NCBI GenBank assembly: GCA_030583825.1
Contig: CP129477.1
Coordinates: 74,259-138,258, forward strand
Reading direction: 5' to 3'
Length of the DNA: 64,000 nucleotides
From: Candidatus Dojkabacteria bacterium
Lineage (GTDB): Bacteria; Patescibacteriota; Dojkabacteria; GCA-002793355
Shown here: positions 499 through 29,993 of the stretch, in pieces
Position numbering within the stretch: the stretch's first letter is position 1
How the letters are laid out: every line of letters begins with the position of its first letter
Made by a program: the position numbers and the translations under genes
The notes under the pieces: model-generated
Databases searched by the model: none
Told to the model about the DNA's origin: nothing
What the model saw: only the letters and a program-made list of their open reading frames with translations

Positions 499-2820
499 TT
501 AAAACCTTTTTCTTATATATTCAGTTATCTCACTCCCTTTCTCTAATGGCTGTGATGTATTCCCACTTCTGATATAAAATCTCTCAAACTTCCGCCCATG
601 TTCATCCATAACTTCTAGGAAAACAGGCTCCTTACCTGCTTCTACATCTATTCTACAAATTTCTTTTCCATCCAAGACAGGAAATGTAACTATTAAATTA
701 GTTGTACTAAAAACTGTGCCAAACGTTTTATTAAGTTGATTTCTTAAATGTATTTCAAACTCATCCTTGTTCCCATCTTTTAAGGTCAAATAATCTTTAT
801 CAAGACCCAATGCAACACCGTTATCATCAACCCCAATTATTAATGTTCCACCATGAGCGTTATTAAAAGCTGATATTGTTTTAAAAATGATTTCTTCCAT
901 TTTCTTATCTTGAATATCTCTGTCAATATCCCATCTATAAGAGGATTTAAACTCAAGCTTTGAATTTTCGCCAAGTGCAATAAGTTCTTCAATTGTATCT
1001 GGATTTGAATCATTTGTTGGGTCTTCAAATATGGTTTGTATCTGACTGAGGATTTGTTTCTTTCTTTCCTCTAAAAATTCATAGTAATCATCTTTATTAA
1101 AGGACTCTTTAGATAATATTTCTATTGCTTTTTTGCTAATCTGATGAGAGGCAAAAAGTTTATAAATTTCATCTGCATTATTACTACTAAATAATTTGGG
1201 CAAGTATTCATTAGGTAATGTATCACTAATTATGTGTCTGTTAGTTGTAGGTAGTAAAGGCGTTCTATTAAGTATTGAATTTATATCCTCACCAACAACA
1301 TCCTTTCCCCATGAGCGTGGAACAATATGATGATCATCAAGTTGTGAATAGTCAGGTAAATCAAGTGTTTTCCAATCTCTAGCTCCATTAATGATATAGA
1401 GATTAAAAATTGCATTATAAATCGCTGAATTTTGTTTTGTTTCTCGGGTTAGGTCTAAATTTTGATATGAATCTTTAAATCTCTGTACGATTTCTGGTAT
1501 TGCATTATCGTCTTCAAACCACTTAATCATCAATTTGTAGTCTTTTGCAGACTGTGATTCAACCGAACTAGAATAGTTTTGTGTAAAAACTGATGCCCAA
1601 TACCACTGTCTAAGCTTCTTGATTGCCGAAAGATGATTCTCTTCTAAATTATTATCAATGTAGGCTTTAAGTGCCGAAAATATTGGTAATATTCCATTGT
1701 AAGGGAGAAATCTCATATCGATTACTCCATATTCACGAGGGTTTCTTAGTGTTTTAACAGCATTCTTATATGCTTCAATTGAAGCATTCCATTCCTTCTC
1801 AAAAGTAAATGCATCTGCAACAAGTATCTTCTCTTCCTTAGTATTGTCTTCTAACCGAATTGTTTTCTTTGCATTAGGAACAAGATAGTACAAATATCTT
1901 GGAGAGCAATAGTCTTGTAGTTTTATAGACATATTCTGTAAAAGGTGAACTTTTGTTCTTGCTTCATCAACAAACATTAACTCATCTTTTATAATCCTCC
2001 AATTTTCTTTTAGATTGATCTCATGAGGGCGTAAAATTGCATTGAGAAGGTCGAATATACTTAATGGTACTCCTTTGCTGTTAATCTTTGTAAAGATATC
2101 ACATACTTTTTCAATAGGCATATTCCTGTCCAATTCAATGTAGCTTATGCTGTATTCGCTTAGCGTTACTTCTACTATTTGCTTTAAAGCATCATATATC
2201 TCGTTTACTTTCTCAGCGTCTACGCCTTGTTTTATAAGGGATTCCTTATATCCGTTAAGCCAAGTGAAGAAAGCAAAAGTCTCTGTTAGAACGGAGATTG
2301 GTAAAATGTTGTTCTTGTACTGTTGCTCTGGATTACTTAATAGACTTTTTATACTTTTAGATTCCCATTCATAATAAAAGGCTTCATCGAAATCGGAATC
2401 TAACAAGTTGTTAATATCAATAAAGAAATGGCAACTTGATTTTCTTTTGGGGAAAGGAATGTCCTTTGCAAAAAAGGCGTAATACAAGGCTGATAGACGT
2501 TGCTGACCATCTAGTACAATGTGTCTAGGATCACCATTACTTCTATAGCCATATATTGGCTCACAATTAAGTATTTTGATATTTTCATCAGAAGCTTTCC
2601 AAAAAAGAAGAGTACCTACATAGTAGTCCATGAAAATGGACTTTAACAAATCTGCTACATCCCAAGGATTCCACTCAAACTCTCGTTGGAAATCAGGAAT
2701 TACAAATTCCCCTTTGTGAATCTGAGAGAGTAAATTTTGTAATGATACTTTTTCAGTTTTTTCTATATGCCTCATAAGATTAATTAATAAACTTAAAATA
2801 GTCCTTCCATCTTCTTCCAA
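499..2820 (-). CDS. GmrSD-family Type IV (modification-dependent) restriction endonuclease, DUF262 + DUF1524, with a C-terminal AlbA_2/Schlafen-like domain.
   Basis: The N-terminus has FQREFEW and DGQQRL, the DUF262 ParB-like nuclease motifs. The middle has DDHHIVPRSWG...N...N, a DUF1524 His-Me finger. The C-terminal ~150 aa (KTISAFNNAHGGTLIIGVDDNG...FYIRSGNTSQPL) matches the AlbA_2 divergent-AAA/Schlafen pattern. Confidence 0.7.
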   Translation of the reverse strand: MEEDGRTILSLLINLMRHIEKTEKVSLQNLLSQIHKGEFVIPDFQREFEWNPWDVADLLKSIFMDYYVGTLLFWKASDENIKILNCEPIYGYRSNGDPRHIVLDGQQRLSALYYAFFAKDIPFPKRKSSCHFFIDINNLLDSDFDEAFYYEWESKSIKSLLSNPEQQYKNNILPISVLTETFAFFTWLNGYKESLIKQGVDAEKVNEIYDALKQIVEVTLSEYSISYIELDRNMPIEKVCDIFTKINSKGVPLSIFDLLNAILRPHEINLKENWRIIKDELMFVDEARTKVHLLQNMSIKLQDYCSPRYLYYLVPNAKKTIRLEDNTKEEKILVADAFTFEKEWNASIEAYKNAVKTLRNPREYGVIDMRFLPYNGILPIFSALKAYIDNNLEENHLSAIKKLRQWYWASVFTQNYSSSVESQSAKDYKLMIKWFEDDNAIPEIVQRFKDSYQNLDLTRETKQNSAIYNAIFNLYIINGARDWKTLDLPDYSQLDDHHIVPRSWGKDVVGEDINSILNRTPLLPTTNRHIISDTLPNEYLPKLFSSNNADEIYKLFASHQISKKAIEILSKESFNKDDYYEFLEERKKQILSQIQTIFEDPTNDSNPDTIEELIALGENSKLEFKSSYRWDIDRDIQDKKMEEIIFKTISAFNNAHGGTLIIGVDDNGVALGLDKDYLTLKDGNKDEFEIHLRNQLNKTFGTVFSTTNLIVTFPVLDGKEICRIDVEAGKEPVFLEVMDEHGRKFERFYIRSGNTSQPLEKGSEITEYIRKRF

Positions 2821-5162
2821 CCATCCAGATTGCCTACAGTATTTTGATAATCTTCATTATCGTTGTAATACCATGTACCATTCTCAAATATTGCTATGCC
2901 ACCAATATAGTCTTTACCAAGCTCCTTCAATTTTTTAGCTAGTGACTCAGCTCGCCCTTCTGTATCGGTAGCCGTTCTTCCTGCTTTGGTATCAAATATT
3001 CCGATTCTGCCATCTTTAAACCTAACTATCCAATCTGGATAAAACAACGCATCTTCTTGTTTAGAGGTATTGAAATATTTAACTGCGAAATAGTCTTTTC
3101 CGCTGTCTCCATTCTTAAACCACCATTCAAGATAATCCATTTTCGTATCGAGATATTTCATAAACTTTTCTTCATTCTCTCTACCGTCATAATCCTTTCT
3201 GATATAGTACTTGTCCAATACGCAAAGCCTTTGTTCCAATTCCTCGTAGTCTTCTGTATAAGCATATTCCTCTTTAATAGAAAAAACTGGGGTTTCATCT
3301 TTTTCTACTTTGGCTATCTTTTCCTTTAATAACTCTTGAAGTATAGGGCGATACTCCTTTAATGCTTGAGTAATTGCCTGTTTAAAAACACTACTTTCAC
3401 GCTTTAATACATCGTAAATAAATACTTTGTAGTAGTATGAGCTATCCTCACTAAAAATACCTTTAAACCAAACTCTTATTGCTGATTTTAATGGACTCCA
3501 AGACCTTGCTATATTAGTTATTTTGGCGTCTTTCTCTGTTTGCTCCTTTAATATTTCAAAGCATAGATAGTTGAATGTTTTTTCTACGTCTTGATGAGAC
3601 ATTTCAAGGTCAACATCTTCACCTGCATTAGCAAATTCAAGGTTAATTTGGTCAAAATCTGTAAATTCAGCATTGACTATGATCTTATTTGTAAGTATTG
3701 GATTTAATTCAATACCTTCTTGCTGTAACTTATCCTTCGCTTTCCCTAAAATATCGTCATTAGTGATTCCGAAATAATTATTCATCGAACCAAGAAAACT
3801 CATTTGGAACTTTGATGAATTGCTCAAGTCCCCATAATCAACCCTTGTAACAAAAGCAGATTGAATTTCAACATTTGTGATATTTTTCTTCCTTTTAGCG
3901 ACATAAATTAGTGGCTTATTAAATGTTGATTGATCTGGAATTGTAACCTCAGTTCTCTTATAGTTTGTGTATAGATATCCAGTTCTTAGATCAGAATAGT
4001 CCTTGTAATCCTCGTTGTTTTCAGGATCAGGCATCCTTAGAATTCTTCCGATTGTTTGAGTATAAAATGTAGGAGAAGTAATTTCCCTAAACATAACTAA
4101 AATGTGTGCTCTCGGACAGTCCCAACCTGTTCCTGCGGCTTGTTTAAAGAGCATAAAATCTACATCGCTATCATTCTCAGTAATAAATTCCATGTTTTTC
4201 TGTTTTCCATCAAACCACATTGCAACACGATCTTCTTTAATCCCTTTTTTGTTGAGCGTTTCTAAAACAACCTGTTCTTTAGTTTTTTGTCCGATTTCAA
4301 TTAGCTTTTTATCGTCATTAGGTAGTTGGATTAATATAAGTGGATTGATTTCTTTGTTTATCTTTTTATATTGATCGATAATTTCAGATCTCTTCCTAAT
4401 CGCTAAATCAATAAGTACTTCATCTAAATCCTGTCCTTTGAACTTCTGTAAATCTTCATCTGTTTGAACAACAATCTTTTCCTTAATTAGCCCCTCCTCA
4501 ATAACTTTTTGTCTTGGTACTTCAATATATCCTGCCTCATTGTTCTTGACTTGAGAAAAAGAAGGTTCCTCTTCTGGTGTTGCGGAAACTTTAACAATTA
4601 CTTTCGGATTAATATAATCAATTATTTCCTGTGCCAGATGTGTTCTACTATTTTTATGCGACTCGTCAACTACGAGAATGATTTCTCTCTTGGCTTCATG
4701 AGTCGCATCTATCATATCTTCAAAATATTTTCCACTTTCTTTCTGCATTAACTCATCTTCTGGTCTCCTTAGGACTCTATTCTCAGCACTTTTTGAAACA
4801 ACTTTCTGCCAATTTATGAATAAGATATCGTTTTTCAAAAGTATCCCTCTGGAATCAATATCCTGAACGGTTAATAATTCATTTTCAAGGGTATTTTCAA
4901 AATATTTGAAGAATTTTTCCTTACTCTGCATCGCTAACTCATCACTAAAAGTGATCCAGATAAAAGCTTTATCGGAATCCCAATTTGGTAGATGATTCAA
5001 TCCTTTGATAAAATGTGCCATCATAAAAGTCTTTCCACTACCTGTAGGGGATTTGAAGACTAAAGGAAGTTGTCTTTTAGGAGTTCCCCATATCGTTGTA
5101 AGTGAAGTTAGGAGTTCTTCTACTGCAGATTTTTGAAATTCTAATAAATTGAATTGTGCCAT
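2793..5162 (-). CDS. res: Type III restriction enzyme Res subunit (SF2 helicase + PD-(D/E)xK nuclease).
   Basis: Helicase motifs are FKSPTGSGKT (motif I), VVDESH (motif II) and TQTIGRILR (motif VI). The C-terminus carries YPDW...FDTKAG, a PD...DxK nuclease motif. It lies immediately downstream of, and slightly overlaps, the mod gene. Confidence 0.8.
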   Translation of the reverse strand: MAQFNLLEFQKSAVEELLTSLTTIWGTPKRQLPLVFKSPTGSGKTFMMAHFIKGLNHLPNWDSDKAFIWITFSDELAMQSKEKFFKYFENTLENELLTVQDIDSRGILLKNDILFINWQKVVSKSAENRVLRRPEDELMQKESGKYFEDMIDATHEAKREIILVVDESHKNSRTHLAQEIIDYINPKVIVKVSATPEEEPSFSQVKNNEAGYIEVPRQKVIEEGLIKEKIVVQTDEDLQKFKGQDLDEVLIDLAIRKRSEIIDQYKKINKEINPLILIQLPNDDKKLIEIGQKTKEQVVLETLNKKGIKEDRVAMWFDGKQKNMEFITENDSDVDFMLFKQAAGTGWDCPRAHILVMFREITSPTFYTQTIGRILRMPDPENNEDYKDYSDLRTGYLYTNYKRTEVTIPDQSTFNKPLIYVAKRKKNITNVEIQSAFVTRVDYGDLSNSSKFQMSFLGSMNNYFGITNDDILGKAKDKLQQEGIELNPILTNKIIVNAEFTDFDQINLEFANAGEDVDLEMSHQDVEKTFNYLCFEILKEQTEKDAKITNIARSWSPLKSAIRVWFKGIFSEDSSYYYKVFIYDVLKRESSVFKQAITQALKEYRPILQELLKEKIAKVEKDETPVFSIKEEYAYTEDYEELEQRLCVLDKYYIRKDYDGRENEEKFMKYLDTKMDYLEWWFKNGDSGKDYFAVKYFNTSKQEDALFYPDWIVRFKDGRIGIFDTKAGRTATDTEGRAESLAKKLKELGKDYIGGIAIFENGTWYYNDNEDYQNTVGNLDGWKKMEGLF

Positions 5163-5164
5163 AG

Positions 5165-6844
5165 TTATTTCGTATTCAAGTTATAAATTTGTTTATAAAT
5201 TTCGAGAATTGGTGCGGGTATTGTTTTCACTTTAGCATCCTTTATTTCTGCGAAATCATCTGGAAATTCGTTATCACCCCAACTAAATACATAGATTGAG
5301 ACAGGTTTATCAAGTTTTTTAACGGTACTCTTAAACTTCTCAAAGTTAGTCATTTCCTCCCTGAAATAAATAGCTGTATATCTATCGTTACTCTCGTAAA
5401 ATTGCATCCAATCATCTTTATTGATCAAATCTAGAGTGTTTTCAGATAATGCAAGTAATTCTCCTGCATTGTGGGCTATGAGTACCTTGTCTTCATCTTT
5501 AATGTTCGTAATATTTCTTTTTCCTATAAAGGAAGTTCTGTAATATTTTAGGCTCCCATTAGTATCTTGCATATCTGAAACTTTTCCATTCAAAACTTTA
5601 TAAATTCGAGGATAACAAACATCTTTCATAATATTAGCCTCGTTATTTGTAACAAGAATAAATTTTCTTTGTCCGTTATCGTCAATATTTTTTAGAACTA
5701 CTGAATGACCTGTTGTTCCTGAGCCAGCAAAGAAATCCAAGACATAGCTCTTTTTTACTGTAGATAATTCAATTATTCGCTTTAGTAAGGAAGTAGGTTT
5801 AGGATTATTAAAAATCTTATCTCCAAGAATTTTTTCAAGTTCCTTTGTTCCATTAGTTGTTGTTCCAACATCATCCCAAATTGATTTCGCAGTCGAGCCT
5901 TTAGCCTCTACTTCATACAGAAATCGCTTTAGTTGAGGTTTAGATTTTCCAGATTTACCAAAAATAATCCTTCCGTCATTTAAGTATTTTAAATAATCCT
6001 TTTCTGTAGTTCTCCAACACCTTCCTTTAGGTGGCATAAATTTCTTACCAGTATTAGGATTTTTAATTTCATATGTAAGGTTTGGTCTAATATTTGGTGC
6101 ATCAAAAGGATCAGCAGTCCAAGGACCTCGTGAATCATTATCAGGATTTGAGAATTTATTTTTATCCATCTTCAATCTAAATTCCTGCTTTATTTCCTGT
6201 AGAACCGAAATATCTTTCGCATAAACTAATGTATGGTTATGGTTTAAAGAAACAATGGTATCATTTGAAACAGATTTTCTAGAGTTCCAAATAACATCTA
6301 TAACAAAATTCTCCTCGTTAAAAATACTGTCACATAGTAACTTTAATTGGGCAAATTCATTATCATCAATGGAAATAAAAATTACACCTCTTTTACTTAG
6401 AAGGTTTCTAGATAATTCTATGCGTTTACTCATAAAAGAAAGCCAGTAACTATGTCTAAAGGGATGATTTCTTGGAACTTCTGTTCCATCAGGATAACTA
6501 GACAATATACGTTTATCTTTATATCTAAAGCCATCGTTTCCAGTGTTATAGGGAGGGTCAATATATATGAGATCAATTTTTCCTTTATGGGTGTAATTCA
6601 AACAAGTAAGAGCATGATAATTATCGCCTTCAATCAAAATATGTGTAGGTTTTCCGTCATCGTTTTTTATCGCTAATTCAGGTACTTCCTTAAGTATTGG
6701 TAATTTGTTTTCAACATCATCTTCAAATGCCTCTGGAACATCCATCCATACAAGTCCATACTTTTGTTTCTTAACAGACTTTTTAAGCCGCTCAACTTGT
6801 TTTTTTAGTTTTAAAATGTCATTTTGATAGTCGTTATTGTTCAT
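5165..6844 (-). CDS. mod: Type III R-M Mod subunit, N6-adenine DNA methyltransferase (beta class).
   Basis: IYIDPPYNTG (motif IV) comes before FFAGSGTTG (motif I), which is the beta-class order typical of Type III Mod. Gene order mod then res. Confidence 0.8.
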   Translation of the reverse strand: MNNNDYQNDILKLKKQVERLKKSVKKQKYGLVWMDVPEAFEDDVENKLPILKEVPELAIKNDDGKPTHILIEGDNYHALTCLNYTHKGKIDLIYIDPPYNTGNDGFRYKDKRILSSYPDGTEVPRNHPFRHSYWLSFMSKRIELSRNLLSKRGVIFISIDDNEFAQLKLLCDSIFNEENFVIDVIWNSRKSVSNDTIVSLNHNHTLVYAKDISVLQEIKQEFRLKMDKNKFSNPDNDSRGPWTADPFDAPNIRPNLTYEIKNPNTGKKFMPPKGRCWRTTEKDYLKYLNDGRIIFGKSGKSKPQLKRFLYEVEAKGSTAKSIWDDVGTTTNGTKELEKILGDKIFNNPKPTSLLKRIIELSTVKKSYVLDFFAGSGTTGHSVVLKNIDDNGQRKFILVTNNEANIMKDVCYPRIYKVLNGKVSDMQDTNGSLKYYRTSFIGKRNITNIKDEDKVLIAHNAGELLALSENTLDLINKDDWMQFYESNDRYTAIYFREEMTNFEKFKSTVKKLDKPVSIYVFSWGDNEFPDDFAEIKDAKVKTIPAPILEIYKQIYNLNTK

Positions 6845-8862: not shown

Positions 8863-9393
8863 TTAATCGTTTAGGCTAACGAATACTCTCTGATTTGATG
8901 AATAAAACTTACATGTATAAATCGTTATATATTCATCACTGGGATTATTCGTTCCATTAGTAATTCCTTTGATTTGGTATTCATACCTCTTACCATTCCA
9001 AATAACAAACACTTTATCTCCCTCATTTAGTTTATTCACATGATAAAGTGTTTGCTTCATCTTTTGCTCGGGACTGAGAGTTGACCATCCAAAACGATGA
9101 ATTGCAATCAAATTTGGAAGATTATCTGAATCAAGTCTTTGAATCCAACCACCATAATCTAAAAACTCTTTATCTTGTCCGATTTTCATATCAACACCAA
9201 TTGAAGGAATAATAAGTCTGTTGATTGAAAGATCTTCTTCTGATTCAATCATTTCAATAATTTTCGCTTCATTCGGTGGATTGATTTTGTATTCAATCTC
9301 AGGAGAGAAAACTTCATAGATAATAAATAAGCCAATACCAATCAAAATGATTGAAATAATTATCAGTATTGATTTAATAAGTCTTTTACCCAT
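8863..9393 (-). CDS. Sortase-family transpeptidase, membrane-anchored.
   Basis: N-terminal TM helix. Catalytic His is in LIAIHRF and catalytic Cys is in ITIYTCKF (the TLxTC-like motif), followed by a conserved Arg (QRVFV). Confidence 0.6.
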   Translation of the reverse strand: MGKRLIKSILIIISIILIGIGLFIIYEVFSPEIEYKINPPNEAKIIEMIESEEDLSINRLIIPSIGVDMKIGQDKEFLDYGGWIQRLDSDNLPNLIAIHRFGWSTLSPEQKMKQTLYHVNKLNEGDKVFVIWNGKRYEYQIKGITNGTNNPSDEYITIYTCKFYSSNQRVFVSLND

Positions 9394-10253
9394 GATTCAT
9401 TCAATTGATTAAATAAAATAGGCATGGTGAGGAACGATTCAATTTCGGTTGAGGTTATGCTTTTGATGTTTTCGCACCTACCGACACTCATCCAAAGTAA
9501 ATTCTTTGATTTCTCAAGTAGTCCTCTTGCATCAATGGCTGATTGGGGATCTGTTTCGGGTTCAATCTGTAGATTATCCAATCGTTGTTTGGTTCTTTCT
9601 GAAAGAAAAAGAATTTTTGGGTATTGATTGAATCGTTTCTGCCAATCACCATAAACAAAGTATTCAAAGTAGCGTAAGAATTTTCTTGATAACTGCTCAA
9701 TATCCATACTTCCAGTATCGTATTCAAGAAAGTAATTAAATACTTTGTTATCAACCGTAAACTCAAAATATGAATCAGGTGATAAAACTCGTTTTATCGT
9801 TCGTCCAGATTTATCTGATCTGAATTCATATTGAAGTACCATTCGTTGATCACCAATCCAGTCATTCAATTGAATATGAGGAAAGGATTTAAGCCCAATC
9901 ACAAATTGCTCATAAATTTCACCGATTTTGACTGAGTGTTCCAACATTGCAAACTGCACTTTCTGCCCTTGATTGGGAATTGAAATATTTTCAAGTTCAA
10001 CACCTCTAACATCTGCAAGCAATTCACCACCTTTTTTAGTAAGATAAACAACTTTCCAATTATTACCATAGTAAAAAGATTTCAATAATCCTTTACTCTC
10101 CAAACCAATAATAGCTTTCTCCAATGACTGCCTATGAGAATATAATCCCTTTTGTTTTGCTATTGTTCTTAATACTTTGATTGGTAAGTACCTGAATGAT
10201 TCAATAATATCCAGTAACCCTATTTGATTGTATGTAATTCTAATTTTATTCAT
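9363..10253 (-). CDS. Replication-relaxation-like wHTH protein, candidate relaxase or relaxosome accessory protein of the element.
   Basis: The N-terminal region (LPIKVLRTIAKQKGLYSHRQSLEKAIIGLESKGLL) looks like a winged helix. The overall pattern recalls the Replic_Relax family. It lies next to the structured candidate oriT and the coupling-protein gene. Confidence 0.35.
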   Translation of the reverse strand: MNKIRITYNQIGLLDIIESFRYLPIKVLRTIAKQKGLYSHRQSLEKAIIGLESKGLLKSFYYGNNWKVVYLTKKGGELLADVRGVELENISIPNQGQKVQFAMLEHSVKIGEIYEQFVIGLKSFPHIQLNDWIGDQRMVLQYEFRSDKSGRTIKRVLSPDSYFEFTVDNKVFNYFLEYDTGSMDIEQLSRKFLRYFEYFVYGDWQKRFNQYPKILFLSERTKQRLDNLQIEPETDPQSAIDARGLLEKSKNLLWMSVGRCENIKSITSTEIESFLTMPILFNQLNESWVKDLLNQY

Positions 10254-10265
10254 AAATTTATCCCT

Positions 10266-10401
10266 GTTCCGACCGCTGTATTTTCACACTCTGTGTAGGT
10301 CAAACATACACATGTTGACCGTAGTCGAGGGAGTGATTGGGTGGAGTCCGAAGGAGTCCACCCAATCACTCAACACCGAGACTGAAATAGGCGGTCGGAA
10401 C
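10266..10401. promoter_or_regulatory. Nested inverted-repeat element (~135 bp), candidate oriT/nic region or structured RNA.
   Basis: An outer perfect 11-bp inverted repeat GTTCCGACCGC (10266-10276) pairs with GCGGTCGGAAC (10391-10401). An inner perfect 14-bp stem GAGTGATTGGGTGG (10331-10344) pairs with CCACCCAATCACTC (10358-10371). A third hairpin GGTCAA...TTGACC sits at 10298-10320. Confidence 0.4.
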
Positions 10402-10472
10402 ACATTATTATTAATTTATGTAAGTAAAAGAGCGTAGTTGCTTCTGATTTCCAAGCTGAAACAGGTGTGCAA

Positions 10473-13067
10473 CTACGCAAACTTGCATCCGTCAACGATC
10501 CAAGTCCTTCTGTTTTTGATTTCCTGTTCGATTTCTGACTTATGTTTTCCATATTTCTGATATGAGTTATCAATAAAATTATTTACGTACTCCTTGCTAA
10601 AAGATGTTTCTCTCTCCTGTGGGATATAGATTGAGAAAACATCTTCACCTGCCTTAACATTCGCATTGAATTCAGGTACTTCCATAACCTCCTGTTCAAG
10701 CACTTTGCCCTGTAACTCCTTAGAAATGATTTCTGAGTCTTCTAAGCCGCATCTGTAGTAGACTTTGTTCTTTACATTTCCAATTACTGAATGAAATACA
10801 TCGTCAGGAAGTTGTTTAAAGAATTGATGAGCGAGGACTAATTCAAGCTTAAATTTTCTAGCCTCTGATAATGCTTGAGAAAAATCAGAACTTGCAAAGT
10901 TTTGAAACTCATCGGCATATACAACAAAAGGTCGTCTATCTTCCTGATTAACCTTCTTTGCCTCAAACCATACTTTGGACATCAAAAGTGAACCGAGTAA
11001 GCTCATCCCTTCTTCACCGATATTCTTTGATGAGAGATTCACAAGTAGTACCTTCGATTGTCTGATAATGTTTGAAATGCTGATTGCATTTCGTGACTGC
11101 CCGAAAGTGTACATCAGAATTCCTGTGAGTATTTGAGACAGTTTATTATCAAAACCTTGCCGTATTTCTTGCCAATTCTGAGAGGTTTTATAGTTGGGCA
11201 ATGTATCTTGCCAAAAGGCTCTCAGTCCCTCGTATTTATTCAGATCAATAACTTTGAGTACACTTGATTCCATCTTGTCACTAAAAAATAGATTGCGTAC
11301 GTCAATCAAAGTAGGGGCATGTGAACTCATGAATTGAATTGCTTCTGGGGTTGAACCAAATGATTGAATCCAATCATTCTGAAATATCATCAATGTTTTC
11401 ATGGCATTGATTAACATTGGCTTTCCAGTCATTCCCATTCCGCTATCGGGGTTACTTCGTTTGACAACTTTCTCAATCAGTTTGAAGTTTGAATCAACGA
11501 TTAAATCAATTTCTCTTTCGGAGAGTCCTATTGCGTATAAAGGATTGAATCCAAAATAATAATCTTCACTCCTTGTATCCCAAGCGATTATTCTTTTTGA
11601 TTGCTCAAAGTTGTTTGGTAATCTTTGCAGAATATCAAAGAAAAAATCTTCATGCGGATCCATTAGCATCAAGCCTCGTTTATTCCCTCGATTCACCAAG
11701 TTATCAATATCCTGCAAGATAAATCGCTTTAGAATTGTCGATTTACCTGTGCCTGTTTGCCCTGTAACAACGATATGTCGTTTCCTATTCTCATAAGGCA
11801 GGTGAACCTTATAGCTTTTCTCTCTGGAAAAATTTATTCCAAGTTCTAAGTCATCAATATTCTGTTTACTTCGATAGACCTTTTTAGAGGCGATATCAGG
11901 TGTTATGAAATGATCAATTTGTGGGTCATTAATTCTATTCGGTAAGTGATAAAGCATAGAGATTTCCCTTGATGACAATCTGCCCTGTGAGGTAAAGATC
12001 TCTCTATAGAAAGGAAAGAATCTATCTTCTGGATAAATAAATCTGGAGAATACATCGTTTAGTTTATTTACTCGTTTGCGAATGAGTCGATTTTGAGTTT
12101 CGCTTTTCATTGATTCAAGTGCCTGTTCAATTGCGTTAAGTCTCGCTTCTGAATTATCTCCCTGAGCTACAACTCGGATATACGATGTAAATGAAGTTTT
12201 ATATTTCTCATCCATCCTGCTGTAAAAGTTCTGTAATTCATCTTTATCTACGAAAAACTTTCTCGGATCACTATCAGGTAAAACTGCTAGTGGATCAACT
12301 GAATTTGTTTGATTTGAAAATGATTTACTGAGAGCTGACACTAATTTCAAAAAAGCTAATGGTAGTAAAGGTATTGCGTAGATTAGATAACTCTCAAAAC
12401 GGTTAAGAAACAGGCTTAACCATGTAATTTCATTTCTTAATAGGCGAAAGTTCTGCTTTGCCATATTCAAAGCCTCCTTGTCAATCTGGGAGGGCTTTAA
12501 AACGATTTGAAATAGTGCTTGAGAGTCTTTCACTTGCCCTGACAAAGCAGTCAGTAGATCATTAATCGGATCCATGCTTTCAAAATCTCTTACATCCATA
12601 AGCATATAAACATCATGCTTGAGACTCTTATATTCATGTATTTCAGCTAACTCTGTGCGAAATGATTTAACAGGATCGCTATCAAGGGTTTTAATCTTTA
12701 CTCTGTCTTTGTAAGTGCTGTAAAGGTTTAGTTTCACCAAGTCCTGCATCTGTTTTGTAGGAGTCCATACCAGAAACCTGATTCCATCATGATCTGAAAA
12801 TATCTCAAACGATATTCTGGAATACTTTACAGAGGCGGTAAGATTATCAATAAATCTTTGCAGAGAGAATCTTTCGCCTTGTTTGTTTTTCAGTTCATCA
12901 AGTTGATATTTGGGAGGGATTATCTGCATAGTGAAGCCTTCTTCACTTTGAGCTTTTCTTTTCTCAATGAACAAAACAATGAAATATTTAATCGCCCAAA
13001 GTATCGAAATACTCATTGAGATAATTATCGCTAGTTGTACAAATTGATTGTTTAGTAATTGATTCAT
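10473..13067 (-). CDS. Type IV coupling protein-like ATPase (VirD4/TraG/TraD family) with a long N-terminal extension.
   Basis: N-terminal TM segment. Walker A is VVTGQTGTGKST, followed by LMLMDPHEDFF. Walker B-like is VVYADEFQNF. The T4CP-like RKFKLELVLAHQFFKQL motif is present. Walker A sits unusually far in, at about residue 430. Confidence 0.55.
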   Translation of the reverse strand: MNQLLNNQFVQLAIIISMSISILWAIKYFIVLFIEKRKAQSEEGFTMQIIPPKYQLDELKNKQGERFSLQRFIDNLTASVKYSRISFEIFSDHDGIRFLVWTPTKQMQDLVKLNLYSTYKDRVKIKTLDSDPVKSFRTELAEIHEYKSLKHDVYMLMDVRDFESMDPINDLLTALSGQVKDSQALFQIVLKPSQIDKEALNMAKQNFRLLRNEITWLSLFLNRFESYLIYAIPLLPLAFLKLVSALSKSFSNQTNSVDPLAVLPDSDPRKFFVDKDELQNFYSRMDEKYKTSFTSYIRVVAQGDNSEARLNAIEQALESMKSETQNRLIRKRVNKLNDVFSRFIYPEDRFFPFYREIFTSQGRLSSREISMLYHLPNRINDPQIDHFITPDIASKKVYRSKQNIDDLELGINFSREKSYKVHLPYENRKRHIVVTGQTGTGKSTILKRFILQDIDNLVNRGNKRGLMLMDPHEDFFFDILQRLPNNFEQSKRIIAWDTRSEDYYFGFNPLYAIGLSEREIDLIVDSNFKLIEKVVKRSNPDSGMGMTGKPMLINAMKTLMIFQNDWIQSFGSTPEAIQFMSSHAPTLIDVRNLFFSDKMESSVLKVIDLNKYEGLRAFWQDTLPNYKTSQNWQEIRQGFDNKLSQILTGILMYTFGQSRNAISISNIIRQSKVLLVNLSSKNIGEEGMSLLGSLLMSKVWFEAKKVNQEDRRPFVVYADEFQNFASSDFSQALSEARKFKLELVLAHQFFKQLPDDVFHSVIGNVKNKVYYRCGLEDSEIISKELQGKVLEQEVMEVPEFNANVKAGEDVFSIYIPQERETSFSKEYVNNFIDNSYQKYGKHKSEIEQEIKNRRTWIVDGCKFA

Positions 13068-13927
13068 ATTTTTGTTTTATTCATAAATGATTCTTTAAAT
13101 TGAGATAACATCTCATTCACTTTTGCTTTCTGATCATTTTCCTGTCTTTTCCCAATAAGCTTATTGAGTACTGAGACAAACCAACCTGCTGGATTTTTGA
13201 GGAAATCTGTACCATCAACTTGATCCGTTCTGATGACCCGTCTGGTATCTTCAAGAGCAGATTGGATATCCTCATCTGAGATTTCTCCACGATTACGTTT
13301 ATTGATGATTCCCTGATAGAACTTAATGCTTTTTAGATCATTGAATTCTTCTGCTAAAGCGATAGCTTCTGAGTCAAAAGAATGAAGATTAATTTCTCCG
13401 TTGTCGTTGTCTAGTCCTGAGCTTGTCGAAGGGCTTAACGTTAACGGCTTCTTATATTCTTTCTTTTTATATTCAACTTCTTCTATTTTATGCACACTCC
13501 CTTGTGCATCTGGTTGCACACAGGACTGGGCATCTTGATGCACACGCTCTTGTGCATCACTCGTTTGATCAATTAAAAAATCTAATGACAAAATGTAGTA
13601 AATATTGGTTTGTTTAAATCCTCTACGATCCCATTTAATAAGCCCAAAATCTCGAAGTTCTAGTAGATATTTCTGAATAGTGTTTCTATGTACTCCAAGA
13701 TCTTTTCCAAGTCGATTTTGACCTGGAAAACAACTTCCTTTTTGCCAAGCATAATCTAGTAGTAAGGCATACAATGTCTTTGCTTGCATACTAAGATTAC
13801 TTGCTCTTAATACAGTTCTAGGGATCTGAGAAAATCCCTGTTTAAGTGTTGTATCAAGTATTTCAATTGTTTCTTTATTCGTTTCCGTCATAATAATTTG
13901 TTGGAAATAAAAAGGGTGTTGGATCAA
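13064..13927 (-). CDS. HTH_36-type helix-turn-helix protein, replication-initiator/primosomal-like.
   Basis: IPRTVLRASNLSMQAKTLYALLLDYAWQKGSCFPGQNRLGKDLGVHRNTIQKYLLELRDFGLI is the HTH_36 pattern seen in plasmid/phage replication initiators. It contains internal 20-bp palindromic repeats. Confidence 0.5.
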   Translation of the reverse strand: MIQHPFYFQQIIMTETNKETIEILDTTLKQGFSQIPRTVLRASNLSMQAKTLYALLLDYAWQKGSCFPGQNRLGKDLGVHRNTIQKYLLELRDFGLIKWDRRGFKQTNIYYILSLDFLIDQTSDAQERVHQDAQSCVQPDAQGSVHKIEEVEYKKKEYKKPLTLSPSTSSGLDNDNGEINLHSFDSEAIALAEEFNDLKSIKFYQGIINKRNRGEISDEDIQSALEDTRRVIRTDQVDGTDFLKNPAGWFVSVLNKLIGKRQENDQKAKVNEMLSQFKESFMNKTKI

Positions 13928-14942
13928 TTAGATTCCAACCTCCCTGACTATTCTTTTCGTACATTCCAATATGTGTATGAACACCTGTAGAGAAACCTGT
14001 ATTACCCATAAAACAGATTGGATCTCCATACTTAACTGTTGAACCATCTTGAGCTATAAAGGCATCACAATGACAGTACAGGACTCTGTAATAATCGTTT
14101 GTGATATATGAACACAAAGCACCGTAACCATCTTTGAAATTTGAAACTTTTCCAGTAAGAATTGCTCTATTAATTGAATCAGTTGAACCTTTACCGGGAT
14201 TTTCCTGATACCATTTTGAAGAAGGAACAATATCAACTCCTTTATGCACGTTTTTAACTCCATCAATAACTCGAACTACATTAAATCCAGAAGTAACTGT
14301 AACTAAATCAGTTCTATTTAAGCCAATTGGATTTCCGTAAGGGATGTACATGAGTCCCACATACATTTGATACTGCTCATAGACTTCTTCTTTCTTCGGA
14401 TACGAATATTGGTTGATCTTCTTTTCAGCATCACCATCATATGCTGAAAGAATATTTGAAAGGGTAAAATAGTTATCACACAAGTCTTCGTGTGTAACTT
14501 CATTATTGTTATTTCCATCAGATCCGTAGTTATCCCAATCGGATTGAGGTATTTCTAAAAAGCCAACACCGTTTCCAGTATGCTTCTCATCAAAATCTGC
14601 AATAACTTTTCCGTATGAAGCAATAAGTTCAAACTCTTGTGAGTATTTACGACTTGCTTTATCAATACATTCTCTATGCTCTTGAGGTATCTCTTCTATT
14701 AAGCCTCTTGTACCAGCAAGTACCTGATAAGCAATTGCCTCAAGTGCAAAGATAACGAAAAAGAAGATGACTACATTGGCAAGCAGTATTTTCCACTTAT
14801 TTTTCCAGATAATATTTACAAGTATTGGACCAATTACTGGTGCGACTTTATTTGAAGCTAGTCCAATAACATCACCGACAAGACTATCTCCTATTTCTAC
14901 TGCGTTTTTTGTTGCTTGAAGTGGTTTATTTTCTTCCATCAT
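13875..14942 (-). CDS. M23-family metallopeptidase, a peptidoglycan hydrolase that would serve as the VirB1-type functional analogue of the T4SS.
   Basis: N-terminal TM helices. HKGVD (HxxxD) and GNTGFSTGVHTHIGMY (HxH) are the LytM/M23 zinc motifs. Confidence 0.7.
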   Translation of the reverse strand: MMEENKPLQATKNAVEIGDSLVGDVIGLASNKVAPVIGPILVNIIWKNKWKILLANVVIFFFVIFALEAIAYQVLAGTRGLIEEIPQEHRECIDKASRKYSQEFELIASYGKVIADFDEKHTGNGVGFLEIPQSDWDNYGSDGNNNNEVTHEDLCDNYFTLSNILSAYDGDAEKKINQYSYPKKEEVYEQYQMYVGLMYIPYGNPIGLNRTDLVTVTSGFNVVRVIDGVKNVHKGVDIVPSSKWYQENPGKGSTDSINRAILTGKVSNFKDGYGALCSYITNDYYRVLYCHCDAFIAQDGSTVKYGDPICFMGNTGFSTGVHTHIGMYEKNSQGGWNLIDPTPFLFPTNYYDGNE

Positions 14943-15808
14943 TTCACAATAATTGAAAAATTAGATGTAACAGTTAAGCCATCTTTTGAAATACGGACAA
15001 CTCCGCTTATTGATCCTGAGTTTCCATCTGGTACTGTAAAGTTAACTTTGGTTGCCCCACTTGATGAGGATGGGAAGTTGTAAGAAGCTTGTCCGCTTTG
15101 CCAATTCATGGTTGCATTTCCTGTAGCTCCATTTACTGGATTGTTGTTTTGTTCTTTAACTGAGCAATCCAAACTTACACTTTGCCCAACAAGTGGTTGA
15201 GTATTAGTTATCGAACAACTAAGTTTTAATCCAGTTATTGGATTAGGCTCTGGTTGTATAGGTTCTGTTGGTGTAACAGGCTTTGGAGTTTCTGGCTTTG
15301 GTTCAACTTTGGGTATTTCTGTTTTTGGTTGCTCTTGTTTGTCATCTTGTTTAGTCTCTTCTTTTTTCTCTTCCTCTCGAATTATTGAAAATGCAAGTGA
15401 CTTACTAGCATCATTTGAATTTTGCACCTCAATTAAAACCTCATTTGTACCAATAATAAGATCTATTTGTAATTCAAAAATACCTTCTTCATTTACAGTA
15501 ATTTCTTGTCCGTTGATCCATGCTTTATTCTGGTTTTCTGTTTTTGCAACAACTGTGATCGAGGATTCTTTGGTTTTGTAACCATCTTTTAATGAAACAA
15601 GTTCAATTGTAGGTTCTACTTCATCAGAATCATTCGTACCCTCTGATATTTGTGTTTCTACTGCATTAATTACTGAATTGAATCCGCCTTTAAGGTAAAT
15701 TTCTGCAGACAGAGAAATAGCAAACAATACAAGCAGAATGCTTGTTAGAAAAATGTATCCATGTTTTAGGTTTATTTCTTTATTGTCCATTTTTTCTTTG
15801 TTCATCAA
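14939..15808 (-). CDS. Membrane-anchored surface protein with a Pro/Thr-rich linker and a beta-rich C-terminal domain, T4SS-associated.
   Basis: N-terminal TM. The linker is KTEIPKVEPKPETPKPVTPTEPIQPEPNPITG. It sits in the T4SS operon between the M23 peptidase and VirB4. Confidence 0.4.
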   Translation of the reverse strand: MMNKEKMDNKEINLKHGYIFLTSILLVLFAISLSAEIYLKGGFNSVINAVETQISEGTNDSDEVEPTIELVSLKDGYKTKESSITVVAKTENQNKAWINGQEITVNEEGIFELQIDLIIGTNEVLIEVQNSNDASKSLAFSIIREEEKKEETKQDDKQEQPKTEIPKVEPKPETPKPVTPTEPIQPEPNPITGLKLSCSITNTQPLVGQSVSLDCSVKEQNNNPVNGATGNATMNWQSGQASYNFPSSSSGATKVNFTVPDGNSGSISGVVRISKDGLTVTSNFSIIVK

Positions 15809-17624
15809 TTTTTGCTAAATCTTCTGCATTTGAAGAAAATAATTTCCTCTCATGTGGAGTCGCATACACAAACATATGAGAATGAGTATTTCCTTTGATA
15901 AATAAAGCCTGTCCTTTGGTTAGTCTTGTAATGTAGTCTCGCTCTACATCTGACAGATCAAAGGCTTTTACTAAGCTTGGTATTGATTGTTTCTTCTGAG
16001 CAAGTATTAATGCTGTATCTGCATTTTTTGCAATAACACTTCCTTGAGGACTTTTTAGAAAATCATCTACATCCTGAGAAATTGAAATGACTCCAAGATT
16101 ATATTTTCTACCTCGTCTGACAAGATTTTCCATAAAGTTTGCACTTGATTCATCCTTCAAAAGTAGATGAGCTTCATCAATAATTAAAACTTTACGATTT
16201 CTATTTGATAAAACTTTTTGCCAAATAAAGTTTGATAGGTAAAAAATCGAAGCTTGTTTCTCCTGATCTGGAACTTTCTGAATATTGAAAACTACCATTG
16301 GAGAGTTAAAATCAACATCATCTGTAGAAGGGTTATCGTAAAGATCGCCCATTTCCCCTTTATGAGAGTATTCCAATAGTTCAACTGCAATGCGTTTACC
16401 TTCTTCACCTTGCTTTTCAAATATTTTTATAAGATCTGAAATAGTAGGAGGTTTCTTTGAATAAGTACTTGGATCATCTAGTAAGATTCCTTTACTGGCA
16501 TATGTTTCATTTACTGCTTTGCTAACAATGCCCCTGTTGTAAGCATCCTCAGATAACCAAATTTTGAGAAGACCTTTAACAACTCCAAGATGAGTTCTCA
16601 TTACTTCTTTGGTATCAGTATCACTTGAAAAGAATTGAAGGGGATTTACCTTAGTTTTGCTTTCTGGATTGATATCAATGTTTGTACCACCGACATAATC
16701 ACAAAGAGTTTTGAATTCTCCTTCTGGGTCAATGACATAAACATTAATACCTCGAAATAAGCTCCTGTATGCCTCTAATTTGGCTGAAAAGCTTTTTCCT
16801 GCTCCCGATGTAGCAAAGATGATTCCATTGTAATTTTTTGACGCTTTTGAAAATCTATCAAAACGGATTTTCTCACCACCTAATGTGATTCCATAAAATA
16901 TTCCGTCTGGATCATTTAATGTTGCTGTAGTAAATGGCAAAGAGGAAGATACATTTGAACTTGTTAAGTAAAACTCTTCTCCAACTGCATTAGTTACATT
17001 TGGTAGGAATGTTTCAAGTCCTTGTTTCTGCTTATAAACTAGTTGGTGTAATTTGATCTGTTTTGCGTAAGATAAATCTTTGAGAGCTTTATCGCTTTTA
17101 ATAAGTTTTGAGGTGTTTTCCTGACTCAATTTCAAATACATCGACATTGAGTATAGTTTTTCAACACCCCTAACAATCGAATCCTCAATACTTCTAGCAT
17201 CCGCAATAGCCTGTTCGAGATCAATTGTGTGCATCTTCCCTTTGTCTGCCTTCTCGTAGAATTGAGCGGAAAGATTAGTTATTCTATTTCGAAGACCCGA
17301 TAAGGCTTTTTGAGAATCAAGAGGCTTTATAAACTGGCTAATAACAATAGGTTCTCCGTAATTAACAAGATCGTACAACCAGTTGGGATATATGACTTGT
17401 GGAAATTCAGAAATCATATAAGACTGAATATTTCTGTCGTCTATCTCAATTAATTTTCCTTTGTTTTGAAATTCAAACACAAGAGAGTCATCTGGGGAAA
17501 GTTTCGCTATTTCAGCTTTACGAATACTGTCTTTAATGTATTCTCTGCCTTTTGAATCAATTCTTTGATTAAAGTCATTAAGTGCATATTTAGATTGTTT
17601 AAAAAAATATTTAATAGGATTCAT
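15780..17624 (-). CDS. VirB4/TrbE/TraE-family conjugation ATPase.
   Basis: Walker A is FATSGAGKS. IDPEGEF, Walker B LIIDEAHLLL and the RKYNLGVISISQ motif are all VirB4 hallmarks. Confidence 0.8.
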   Translation of the reverse strand: MNPIKYFFKQSKYALNDFNQRIDSKGREYIKDSIRKAEIAKLSPDDSLVFEFQNKGKLIEIDDRNIQSYMISEFPQVIYPNWLYDLVNYGEPIVISQFIKPLDSQKALSGLRNRITNLSAQFYEKADKGKMHTIDLEQAIADARSIEDSIVRGVEKLYSMSMYLKLSQENTSKLIKSDKALKDLSYAKQIKLHQLVYKQKQGLETFLPNVTNAVGEEFYLTSSNVSSSLPFTTATLNDPDGIFYGITLGGEKIRFDRFSKASKNYNGIIFATSGAGKSFSAKLEAYRSLFRGINVYVIDPEGEFKTLCDYVGGTNIDINPESKTKVNPLQFFSSDTDTKEVMRTHLGVVKGLLKIWLSEDAYNRGIVSKAVNETYASKGILLDDPSTYSKKPPTISDLIKIFEKQGEEGKRIAVELLEYSHKGEMGDLYDNPSTDDVDFNSPMVVFNIQKVPDQEKQASIFYLSNFIWQKVLSNRNRKVLIIDEAHLLLKDESSANFMENLVRRGRKYNLGVISISQDVDDFLKSPQGSVIAKNADTALILAQKKQSIPSLVKAFDLSDVERDYITRLTKGQALFIKGNTHSHMFVYATPHERKLFSSNAEDLAKIDEQRKNGQ

Positions 17625-18379
17625 ATTTCACTTATTGTTAATTTTGATAAATCTAAAATCTCTTGTGTATTTAATGGAATCAGCCTGATTTTAGTTTGTT
17701 CTAGCAGTCTTCCGAATGAGTTCTCCTGATCATCAAGCTTCTGTTTCGCATCGTCTAAACCCTTTGCAAAAGTAGTTAAGACAATATAAAAGCTTCTCTC
17801 CATTGTTAGCGTTAAGTCTTGGTATTCAAGTAGATACTCTCTGCATCGTTCTTGTAACAATCCGTTTAAATTGCGATACCGTAGTACTTCTGTATCAAGG
17901 CTTTTATCTTTCGTTGAAAACTTCTGAATGGTTAAAATTTGAACAGGATTTTTTAGAGCAAAAAGAGCCTGTTGTAGATATTTCTTAAAAGCAAAGATTT
18001 CTTCCTCACTACTCATTGAAAGGTTGATCGGTTCAATTCTAAATACCCTTGAGTACTGAACATCTGAACCTATTACTATTCCTTCTGAAATGTCTTTGCC
18101 AATAACAATCCTTTGTCTTTTAGTAGTAAAAAGAAAATTAAAGGCGTCTATAATGAAAATGTGGAGAGGTCTCCCATATGCATCAAAGAGAAAAGGAATT
18201 AGCAGAAGCCCAATGAACATCTCACCAAGTATTTTTTGATCTACAGTATTAAGAATATTTGTCGTCCAGACAAAAAAGGACAACCCAAGTCCGATTAGTA
18301 AAAGTAAATTTCTTCTGTTTAATACAATTGAGAAGAAACCTGTTTCTCTATTTAGTTTTGGCGGTACTATTTCCTGCAT
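17621..18379 (-). CDS. T4SS-associated membrane protein, possibly a VirB3/VirB8-position protein.
   Basis: Two or three hydrophobic helices near the N-terminus. It lies between the VirB6-like and VirB4 genes and is translationally coupled to them. Confidence 0.35.
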   Translation of the reverse strand: MQEIVPPKLNRETGFFSIVLNRRNLLLLIGLGLSFFVWTTNILNTVDQKILGEMFIGLLLIPFLFDAYGRPLHIFIIDAFNFLFTTKRQRIVIGKDISEGIVIGSDVQYSRVFRIEPINLSMSSEEEIFAFKKYLQQALFALKNPVQILTIQKFSTKDKSLDTEVLRYRNLNGLLQERCREYLLEYQDLTLTMERSFYIVLTTFAKGLDDAKQKLDDQENSFGRLLEQTKIRLIPLNTQEILDLSKLTISEI

Positions 18380-20453: not shown

Positions 20454-20724
20454 TTATCAAGAAGAAAATATCTCTGGCTATTTTTCCTCTCATCATTGGA
20501 TTATCACCGCCATTCAGTAGTTCAAAAGCATCTTTTATGATAAATAGAATTAGAACTCCTGAACCAACCCTTGTTGCAATTGTGATGACTCTCTCAATAA
20601 TTGCTGAAATCTCTGCACTTGGATCACTTTGTGCATAAACTGTTTGAGCAAAGATAATCGGCGACATTGCAACTGTGGCAATTGATAAGGTAACTTTTTT
20701 GAGTTTTTCTATTTTGTTAGACAT
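20386..20724 (-). CDS. VirB2/TrbC-like pilin candidate (112 aa).
   Basis: A signal-peptide-like N-terminus (VTLSIATVAMSPIIFAQTVYAQS) is followed by two hydrophobic helices. It sits directly upstream of the VirB6-like gene. Confidence 0.4.
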   Translation of the reverse strand: MSNKIEKLKKVTLSIATVAMSPIIFAQTVYAQSDPSAEISAIIERVITIATRVGSGVLILFIIKDAFELLNGGDNPMMRGKIARDIFFLIIAAIFLFKPDFILEAIKYIANV

Positions 20725-20739
20725 AATAAATTTGTTAAT

Positions 20740-20880
20740 AAATTATTTAGTTTCTTCCTCAAGTAAAGCCTCATCGACTTTCTTGAGCTTTTTATCTCTT
20801 TTTTCCCTGTGTACACCTCGGAAAAAGATAATCGAGACGTACACAACAAATAGGCTTACAAATACAATTAGCGTTATCAT
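20740..20880 (-). CDS. Small single-TM protein (~46 aa), below the size cutoff of the supplied ORF track.
   Basis: Found by manual translation of the minus strand: MITLIVFVSLFVVYVSIIFFRGVHREKRDKKLKKVDEALLEEETK. Its start overlaps the adhesin stop (ATGA-type coupling). Confidence 0.25.
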
Positions 20881-25028: not shown

Positions 25029-25117
25029 AGATGTAAATCAAAATATTAAATAAAGCTTTCACTTGAGACAGGGCTACTCAACTGCTCAAGGTAAAAGTAG
25101 CCCTGTCTCAAAGACCC

Positions 25118-27480: not shown

Positions 27481-27505
27481 GTTAAATAAATATTTAATAA
27501 TAACT

Positions 27506-29939: not shown

Positions 29940-29993
29940 TTTTTCTTTTGTGCAGCTTGAAAGCACCTGTAGAAGGCTGTACAATGAGCACAT

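Follow-up and report, generated by a model that had tools for sequence, protein, structure and literature searches.

The closest described counterpart of the element studied here, a structured non-coding stretch at 10262–10404 of a 64,000-nt window of the Candidatus Dojkabacteria genome GCA_030583825.1 (contig CP129477.1, positions 74,259–138,258; "the window" is this whole stretch), is the origin of transfer (oriT) region of the enterococcal plasmid pAD1. In pAD1, as Francia and Clewell are said to have described in 2002, the nic site lies within a ~140-bp inverted repeat between orf53, a gene resembling those of type IV coupling proteins (T4CPs), and traX. TraX, the prototype of the MOBC relaxases, combines a winged helix-turn-helix (wHTH) at its N-terminus with a DEE site of the restriction-endonuclease type and a Y181 that is essential; it binds five direct repeats located 70–120 bp from the nic site (2025 review). 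The Pfam family PF13814 (Replic_Relax) is listed as the MobC relaxase superfamily ('Rel_PF13814/MobC'; Coluzzi et al. 2017, PMC5357655), and Replic_Relax has been placed in the PD-(D/E)XK superfamily (Steczkiewicz et al. 2012). A survey of Patescibacteria (the candidate phyla radiation, CPR) recorded 58 MOBC relaxase homologues and 39 relaxase genes near a t4cp gene, and concluded that most type IV secretion systems (T4SSs) of the CPR are not conjugative (Quinonero-Coronel et al. 2025, PMC12102498). The survey covers the same kind of module as the one in the window, but holds no oriT analysis (the word 'oriT' occurs zero times) and does not mention a conserved cis element; the element described here would thus be a so far undescribed oriT in which a large nested inverted repeat adjoins a MOBC relaxase gene. 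The accessions of the analysed loci are not listed in the supplement of that paper.

The architecture of the window locus parallels that of the pAD1-type oriT region. An open reading frame (ORF) for a T4CP-like protein and one for a 296-aa protein, both on the minus strand as are all genes flanking the element, are separated by a 219-bp gap that contains the structured element. From the sequence evidence below we infer an oriT function, and we consider it probable that the element is the oriT of a MOBC-type integrative conjugative element (ICE) of Patescibacteria. Its position, flanked by the T4CP-like gene and by the gene for the ICE's one relaxase candidate, supports this reading, and no better oriT candidate was seen over 1–30 kb. 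The element, its parts and its two neighbouring genes are as follows.

10262–10404, minus strand (gene sense): the whole structured element, candidate oriT core, with a four-helix fold (P1–P4) seen with the covariance model, fold z-scores and covariation
10391–10402, minus strand: 5' arm of P1, TGTTCCGACCGC, perfectly complementary to 10265–10276, with which it pairs
10265–10276, minus strand: 3' arm of P1, GCGGTCGGAACA (given as the minus strand), ending 11 nt before the relaxase ATG
10372–10386, minus strand: conserved junction between P1 and P2, TTCAGTCTCGGTGTT, with columns nearly invariant in alignments A2 and A5
10331–10371, minus strand: P2 core hairpin, GAGTGATTGGGTGGACTCC-TTC-GGACTCCACCCAATCACTC, with an invariant lower stem, a conserved C.C mismatch, a covarying 3-bp tip and a variable loop
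10319–10330, minus strand: invariant motif CCTCGACTACGG directly 3' of P2, the leading nick-region candidate
10298–10320 (approximate), minus strand: P3 hairpin, GGTCAACAT-GTGT-ATGTTTGACC, with a covarying stem and GTGT(G)TA kept in the loop, where an alternative nick candidate lies
10285–10295 (approximate), minus strand: P4 mini-hairpin, CACA-GAG-TGTG, with compensatory changes in 4/4 pairs
10405–10478, minus strand: spacer from the T4CP stop to the element, with a 10-bp perfect inverted repeat (10432–10441 / 10469–10478)
9363–10253, minus strand: putative MOBC-type relaxase, 296 aa, matching PF13814 (Replic_Relax) with 50.1 bits (cut-off 25.3)
10473–13067, minus strand: T4CP-like ATPase, 864 aa, matching TrwB_AAD_bind with 21.7 bits (cut-off 20.5) and P-loop families

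The initial annotation of the window had described a perfect 11-bp outer repeat enclosing about 115 bp. The repeat is perfect, but the repeat search gave arms of 12 bp (10265–10276 / 10391–10402) that lie 114 nt apart. The perfect 14-bp stem with a short loop is likewise a real hairpin of a different length: its 19-nt arms (10331–10349 / 10353–10371) are 95% complementary and consist of 15 perfect pairs, one C.C mismatch and three further pairs around a 3-nt loop. Where one extra 6-bp hairpin had been noted, two were found (P3 and P4). The annotation was right in seeing more structure than in an ordinary terminator. The minimum free energy of a 158-nt stretch folded as RNA was -72.8 kcal/mol (z = -8.6), the z-scores of the DNA fold were -10.4 for the plus strand and -9.4 for the minus strand, and none of 200 shuffled sequences folded as well in either form. 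The GC content around the element was ~0.52, compared with 0.32–0.42 across the window. The junction TTCAGTCTCGGTGTT may in addition pair partly with the 3' motif (AGTC with GACT), a pairing that appeared in the RNAalifold consensus only and is without covariation support.

Plasmid pTEF1 of Enterococcus faecalis V583 (NC_004669) is pAD1-like and typed as MOBC. Its T4CP gene (19757–21970, minus strand) and its Replic_Relax gene (18114–18899, minus strand) are separated by a 700-bp gap and a small ORF. The gap contains a nested inverted repeat of 142 bp (19498–19639) with perfect outer arms of 18 bp, perfect inner arms of 25 bp and a DNA fold z of -13, which is adjoined by 5.5 copies of a 12-bp direct repeat. 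The window shares with pTEF1 the succession of T4CP gene, non-coding gap and Replic_Relax/MOBC gene on one strand, and a nested inverted repeat of similar size and position (138 bp compared with 142 bp, fold z -9 to -13). Both relaxases pass the PF13814 cut-off, and in both an N-terminal wHTH is followed by a PD-(D/E)XK-type D...ExE/D and then K...RY. The distance from the repeat to the relaxase gene differs, being 11 nt in the window and ~440 bp with a small ORF before traX in pTEF1. In the window four helices meet in a junction whose inner hairpin is invariant; the pTEF1 fold is a single long nested hairpin. The relaxases are only remotely related, and the hosts belong to the CPR and the Bacillota, respectively.

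The genes on either side of the element had been annotated as those of a coupling protein and of a relaxosome-like wHTH protein. The first assignment stood, and the T4CP also gave weak TraD matches in NCBIfam. The second protein does carry a wHTH, but belongs to PF13814 and hence to the MOBC relaxase superfamily; it is a putative MOBC-type relaxase, beyond a mere wHTH accessory protein. In Pfam and NCBIfam scans, which also gave the other gene calls of the ICE, no relaxase domain of the HUH, Rep_trans, MOBH or tyrosine-recombinase kind turned up among the element's genes, which makes the 296-aa protein, as judged from domain matches, the sole relaxase candidate. Its AlphaFold2 model, built with 31 homologues, had a pLDDT of 91 and a pTM of 0.87 and showed a winged helix at the N-terminus with an alpha/beta core after it. 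The residues D160, E177, D179, K191, R194 and Y195 are invariant; in the model D160 opens one beta-strand, E177-x-D179 ends the next, and K191...R194-Y195 lies in the helix that follows. The invariant residues of the enterococcal TraX family, D152, E170-x-E172 and K176...R180-Y181, clearly resemble these. No NCBIfam model matched the relaxase, an HMM search of the PDB with it returned nothing, tblastn against plasmids gave nothing at 1e-3, and an exact look-up of the 296-aa protein found no record.

Homologues of the 296-aa protein formed 34 clusters (38–97% identity) in metagenome-assembled genomes (MAGs) labelled Nomurabacteria, Saccharibacteria, Dojkabacteria or 'Patescibacteria group'. Related loci (L001–L029) came from scans of genome and metagenome collections that were guided by the protein, and from exact look-ups. 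In all loci, from Patescibacteria MAGs and metagenomes, where a homologue follows a T4CP gene, the element was present directly upstream of the relaxase start; it was found in 19 distinct T4CP-linked loci. The T4CP–relaxase synteny was conserved, and the gene order M23, HTH_36, T4CP, element, Replic_Relax recurred among these loci. An orphan homologue fused to DUF4143 (L029) had neither a T4CP gene nor the element. A covariance model (R1), with L011 and L012 left out of the seed, gave a single full-length match in each locus, without exception on the gene-sense strand, with 110–163 bits (L011 and L012: 44–48 bits). The window element scored 162 bits on the minus strand; on the plus strand only the palindromic hairpin matched, with 38 bits. 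A scan of 314 kb with R1 gave no copies beyond one per locus. This specificity (a single gene-sense copy per locus, lacking in the T4CP-less L029) supports the oriT reading.

The initial annotation had allowed for a multi-copy repeat of the repetitive extragenic palindromic (REP) kind or for an intrinsic terminator. A dispersed repeat resembling REPs or miniature inverted-repeat transposable elements was rejected, as the element is single-copy in the 64-kb window and occurs once per related locus in the 314 kb covered by the covariance model. An intrinsic terminator was rejected too: a scan of 10150–10600 gave no terminator-like site, and the outer stem is followed by GGGATAAATTTATG, with no T-run. 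The proposal of a candidate oriT has withstood all computational tests run. The host belongs to the CPR and is not a classical Gram-positive bacterium.

In diverged loci, where the protein is ~50% identical, the element was 73–80% identical, compared with 62–67% for the relaxase coding sequence (CDS) and 68–72% for the 3' end of the T4CP gene. The three most diverged loci (L009, L011 and L012) were exceptions, with a whole-element identity of 61–67% that was not above that of the flanking CDS. A core of ~55 nt was nearly invariant throughout. Three parts were essentially invariant: the hairpin GAGTGATTGGGTGGACTCC-loop-GGACTCCACCCAATCACTC, the 3' motif CCTCGAC(T/C)A(C/T)GG and the 5' junction TTCAGTCTCGGTG. 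Columns C86–C92 and their neighbours, which form the CCTCGACTACGG motif, were invariant in 20 loci in which the flanking protein is 49–98% identical. In close relatives the ~70-nt upstream spacer was conserved at the DNA level; it may be part of the oriT or of a promoter region. The element is under selection as DNA and strictly linked to the T4CP–relaxase pair.

The outer stem, P3, P4 and the tip of P2 varied in sequence between loci and kept their complementarity; the outer stems of L005, L009, L011, L012 and L031 are very unlike that of the window and complementary all the same. In the alignment fitted to the model, 96.3% of cells were standard pairs and 20/44 pairs showed compensatory changes, a count to be read with the fitting of the alignment and the mutual relatedness of the sequences in mind. 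The covariation score was 0.248 compared with 0.094 for shuffled alignments, none of which reached it (0/500), and control structures in which the 3' partner was slid by 1–3 columns had at most 5 compensated pairs. A separate MAFFT/RNAalifold analysis gave 16/35 compensated pairs. Compensatory changes affected 10/11 modelled pairs of P1 and all pairs of P4 (4/4, e.g. ATCC/GGAT in L006-type loci). In P3, six changes from GC to AU were counted at pair 93/119 and seven from UA to CG at pair 95/117. In P2, pairs 56/64 and 57/63 changed from CG to UA in 4–5 sequences and pair 45/75 from UA to GC in two. A four-helix intrastrand fold is thus selected, with sequence constraint on the inner hairpin and two flanking motifs.

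The P2 stem is invariant while the other helices covary, the pattern expected of a hairpin that is recognised by a protein. A similar pattern is known from oriTs of HUH relaxases, such as IR2/nic of R388 (TrwC) and the hairpin-loop nic of pMV158 (MobM). There, a conserved single-stranded motif has an inverted repeat directly on its 5' side or around it, the relaxase reads the hairpin arm, whose sequence is conserved for that reason, and the site adjoins the relaxase gene. The window element resembles these in having a conserved inverted repeat beside a conserved motif next to a relaxase gene. It differs in that the enzyme is not an HUH nuclease, the nic consensus is unrelated and helices P1, P3 and P4 are atypical.

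Protein recognition might also take place on double-stranded DNA, with the palindromes as operators bound by a dimeric regulator, e.g. the relaxase through its wHTH, or the HTH_36 protein. The relaxase promoter would then be autoregulated, and the element would take no part in DNA processing. Autoregulation from promoters that overlap the oriT is common among relaxosome proteins, and the 41-bp core is a near-perfect palindrome directly upstream of the gene for a wHTH protein. However, covariation extends over four separate helices, among them one with arms 114 nt apart and hairpins whose sequence differs between clades, and co-evolution of operator half-sites fails to explain this. The C.C mismatch and the compensated tip of P2 also argue for an intrastrand fold. 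We regard an operator without any other role as the least probable of the readings considered.

The wobble pairs give a weak hint of the strand on which the fold forms. In the outer stem the ratio of G.T to A.C was 12:2, based on a small number of independent events and slightly in favour of a folded sense strand; overall it was 30:11, with 17 of the 30 from one invariant, unsupported pair. The same observations would fit a structured cis-acting RNA, i.e. a leader at the 5' end of the relaxase mRNA, or an element between the cistrons of a T4CP–relaxase transcript. It would govern transcript stability, processing or translation and might do so by binding the relaxase or some other protein. The location on the sense strand 11–80 nt upstream of the relaxase start codon, the RNA fold z of -8.6, the strong covariation with junctions and loops conserved as in functional RNAs, the excess of G.U over A.C in the outer stem, and the match of the full covariance model to the sense strand only are all in its favour. 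Such an RNA would form a class of its own, since Rfam holds no match: at E <= 10 the best cmscan hits scored 15–19 bits compared with gathering scores of 40–90, all at chance level, and a known Rfam family was rejected on this basis. No sigma-70-like promoter was found in a scan of the sense strand upstream of the element. The distance from the element to the ATG varies between ~11 and ~80 nt among loci, making direct coupling to the ribosome-binding site unlikely. A sequence-invariant stem of 13–15 bp is unusual in RNA helices and typical of DNA sites recognised by proteins, and one locus (L031) retains the element with no relaxase gene downstream. Finally, conjugative elements all need an oriT, and the 1–30 kb viewed offer no better one. 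A cis-acting RNA in place of an oriT therefore appears unlikely to us. Retron and ribozyme readings were without support, with no reverse transcriptase and no Rfam match.

Single-strand origins (SSOs) of Gram-positive rolling-circle plasmids and of ICEBs1 have the same general appearance as the element. Were it such an origin or a single-stranded DNA (ssDNA) promoter, the fold would form in the recipient, on the strand transferred, and RNA polymerase or a primase would be recruited to it to synthesise the complementary strand; the real nick would lie elsewhere. The likeness to ssoA-type origins and ICEBs1 sso1 is in size (~140 nt), heavy secondary structure, strand bias and the site in a non-coding gap of a conjugative element. 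The hallmark of ssoA is a conserved CS-6 loop motif, TAGCGT/A, together with RSB. The CS-6 hexamer TAGCGT is absent from both strands of the element and nothing like RSB is present; a direct reading of 10262–10404 found not even TAGCG on either strand, and an ssoA-type origin was rejected. The stems contain no embedded -35/-10 pair, bar a weak TTGACC. SSO sequences are usually poorly conserved, in contrast to the nearly invariant core found here, and the tight linkage to relaxase and T4CP genes and the parallel with pAD1 suit an oriT better. We consider an SSO very unlikely.

Several observations weigh against the interpretation as an oriT. There is no DNA similarity to pTEF1, in which covariance model R1 found no match, and a blastn search in distant mode with the element against plasmid and phage collections returned no match, leaving it without similarity to a known oriT. 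The window lacks a direct-repeat array, the reported TraX binding site: Tandem Repeats Finder gave 0 rows in 10100–10700, while it detected the 12-bp x 5.5 array in pTEF1. The relationship of the relaxase to TraX is remote; hhalign against the TraX family gave a probability of 77% (E = 2e-5) over the N-terminal 113 columns only, and neither pairwise BLASTP nor a profile-to-sequence comparison with the pTEF1 TraX-like protein was significant. Foldseek against the PDB gave weak matches only (E > 1e-3; FokI, PfoI and MarR-type wHTH). MOBC relaxases themselves are poorly understood, and a covalent DNA intermediate has not been detected for them. The evidence also does not distinguish a fold in ssDNA from one in RNA, since Watson-Crick covariation is blind to the difference, and the element is probably transcribed too, as it lies on the sense strand directly upstream of the relaxase ATG. 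In some relatives (L007, L008 and L025), loose GATAGAG-like repeats were seen 3' of the element.

If the element is an oriT, the 296-aa wHTH and PD-(D/E)XK relaxase would recognise the invariant P2 hairpin and its flanking motifs when the region is single-stranded or extruded, with the covarying P1, P3 and P4 holding the fold together. The relaxase would then cut one strand, most likely the gene-sense strand (window minus strand), a choice suggested by the G.T excess in the outer stem (12:2, few events) and by the strand asymmetry of the full model. The cut may fall in the invariant CCTCGACTACGG just 3' of the hairpin (10319–10330), in keeping with the general build of oriTs, in which a hairpin lies 5' of nic, or in the GTGTGTA loop of P3. 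The cutting step as such is proposed by analogy, given that no covalent intermediate is on record for MOBC relaxases. The T4CP encoded upstream would deliver the nicked strand to the T4SS. With the sense strand cut, the recipient would receive the relaxase gene and restriction-modification cargo at the start and the T4SS genes plus hairpin at the end, so that the hairpin could serve termination. The same site could double as a rolling-circle replication origin of the excised element. That a conserved four-helix ssDNA/RNA fold, read by a PD-(D/E)XK 'relaxase' without a covalent intermediate, represents a new way of starting and terminating transfer is an idea we hold to be doubtful.

Patescibacteria account for a large and mostly uncultured share of bacterial diversity. 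A strongly selected cis element between T4CP and MOBC relaxase genes argues that this ICE family conjugates among CPR lineages. On the doubtful reading of a new transfer mechanism, the near-invariant core across several Patescibacteria lineages would also mark an actively spreading family of conjugative ICEs, despite the view that T4SSs of this group are largely non-conjugative. As an oriT, the element would be a second, very different one of MOBC type, with an unusual four-helix architecture and no direct repeats, and would bear on how a PD-(D/E)XK relaxase chooses its site and acts on it when no covalent intermediate can be detected. The element lies where a specialist would look for an oriT, and its conservation pattern makes CPR conjugation and the MOBC mechanism directly testable; a defined fragment of ~140–220 bp and one 296-aa protein can be tested in vitro for binding and nicking. 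A functional oriT could become a mobilisable cassette for DNA delivery to CPR bacteria, for which genetic tools are scarce.

Two loci carry altered forms of the module. In L008 (3836–3927; JBGSIU010000045.1) the outer stem, P3 and P4 are kept, and the core hairpin and the CCTCGAC motif are cleanly deleted between two short GAT repeats; either the site is inactivated or the assembly collapsed at the palindrome. In L031 (2419–2573 of the 5-kb contig IMGVR_UViG_3300028241_002699; R1 77 bits) the invariant core, the motif and the upstream spacer are retained, with no T4CP or relaxase gene within 2.5 kb of the element; its neighbours encode an EcoRI-like methylase and a small Phage_rep_O-like wHTH protein. 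This contig may represent an oriT-only mobilisable remnant or a decayed ICE. Copies of this kind, with no relaxase gene nearby, may, in a variant of the doubtful new-mechanism reading, be oriT-only hitchers that are mobilised in trans.

Two MAGs each contained two diverged T4CP–element–relaxase modules. In JAKPPS01 (L001 and L002) the relaxases are 98% and 89% identical to that of the window, and in CAZCSM01 (L006 and L013) 52% and 97%. The modules have identical core hairpins and differing outer stems. They bear on oriT/relaxase specificity, or could reflect mixed bins. Two independent short-read contigs from Logan assemblies (L026:1 and L028:1) start within the 3' arm of the core hairpin, most likely because of an assembly break at the palindrome rather than for a biological reason.

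The 5' border of the element overlaps the end of the T4CP gene in some loci. In window-type loci the T4CP ORF stops at a TAG 68 nt before the element (window 10421–10475). The 15–18 codons past this TAG stay open and resemble the longer C-terminal tail of distant homologues (EIRSNY compared with EARSTY). In L006, L007, L008 and L025 (around 3830–3866) the T4CP ORF overlaps the element's 5' outer arm by 18–39 nt, which makes this arm dual-coded.

The other genes recorded for the ICE and its cargo were the following.

13064–13927: HTH_36 protein
13875–14942: M23 peptidase
15780–17624: VirB4, E = 3e-87 to the ICE VirB4 equivalog
18348–20453: VirB6/TrbL-like protein
27455–29116: large serine recombinase (Resolvase, Recombinase and Zn_ribbon_recom domains), beside tRNA genes
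499–2820: cargo protein with GmrSD_N and Schlafen/AlbA_2 domains
2793–5162: cargo ResIII/SNF2 helicase
5165–6844: cargo N6_N4 methylase, resembling with the helicase a Type III restriction-modification (Mod/Res) pair
Further genes: a DUF11-repeat surface protein of 1383 aa (adhesin) plus a sortase, and a DUF2958 protein

The cargo downstream of the relaxase gene (499–6844) looks like a defence island, and in related ICEs a Type I HsdM occupies the equivalent place (L024). In L023 (3465–3480) and L025 (4900–4915) the relaxase gene is the last of the element and is directly followed by housekeeping genes on the opposite strand, which puts the candidate oriT within ~1.1 kb of an ICE boundary in these loci. 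The genes past the relaxase encode a dCMP deaminase and a NUDIX protein in one of the two, and MFS and ABC transporters in the other. In the window, the recombinase ORF (27455–29116) overlaps a tRNA-Pro gene on the opposite strand (28972–29047), and tRNA-Lys and tRNA-Asn genes lie at 29867–30067. This region is probably where the ICE ends or integrates, and the recombinase ORF may really stop earlier. At the upstream end of the conjugation operon, two further inverted repeats were observed, one at 25854–25941 with 25-nt arms that are 88% complementary and 38 nt apart, the other at 25063–25111 with perfect 16-nt arms and 17 nt between them. Both may be operators or terminators.

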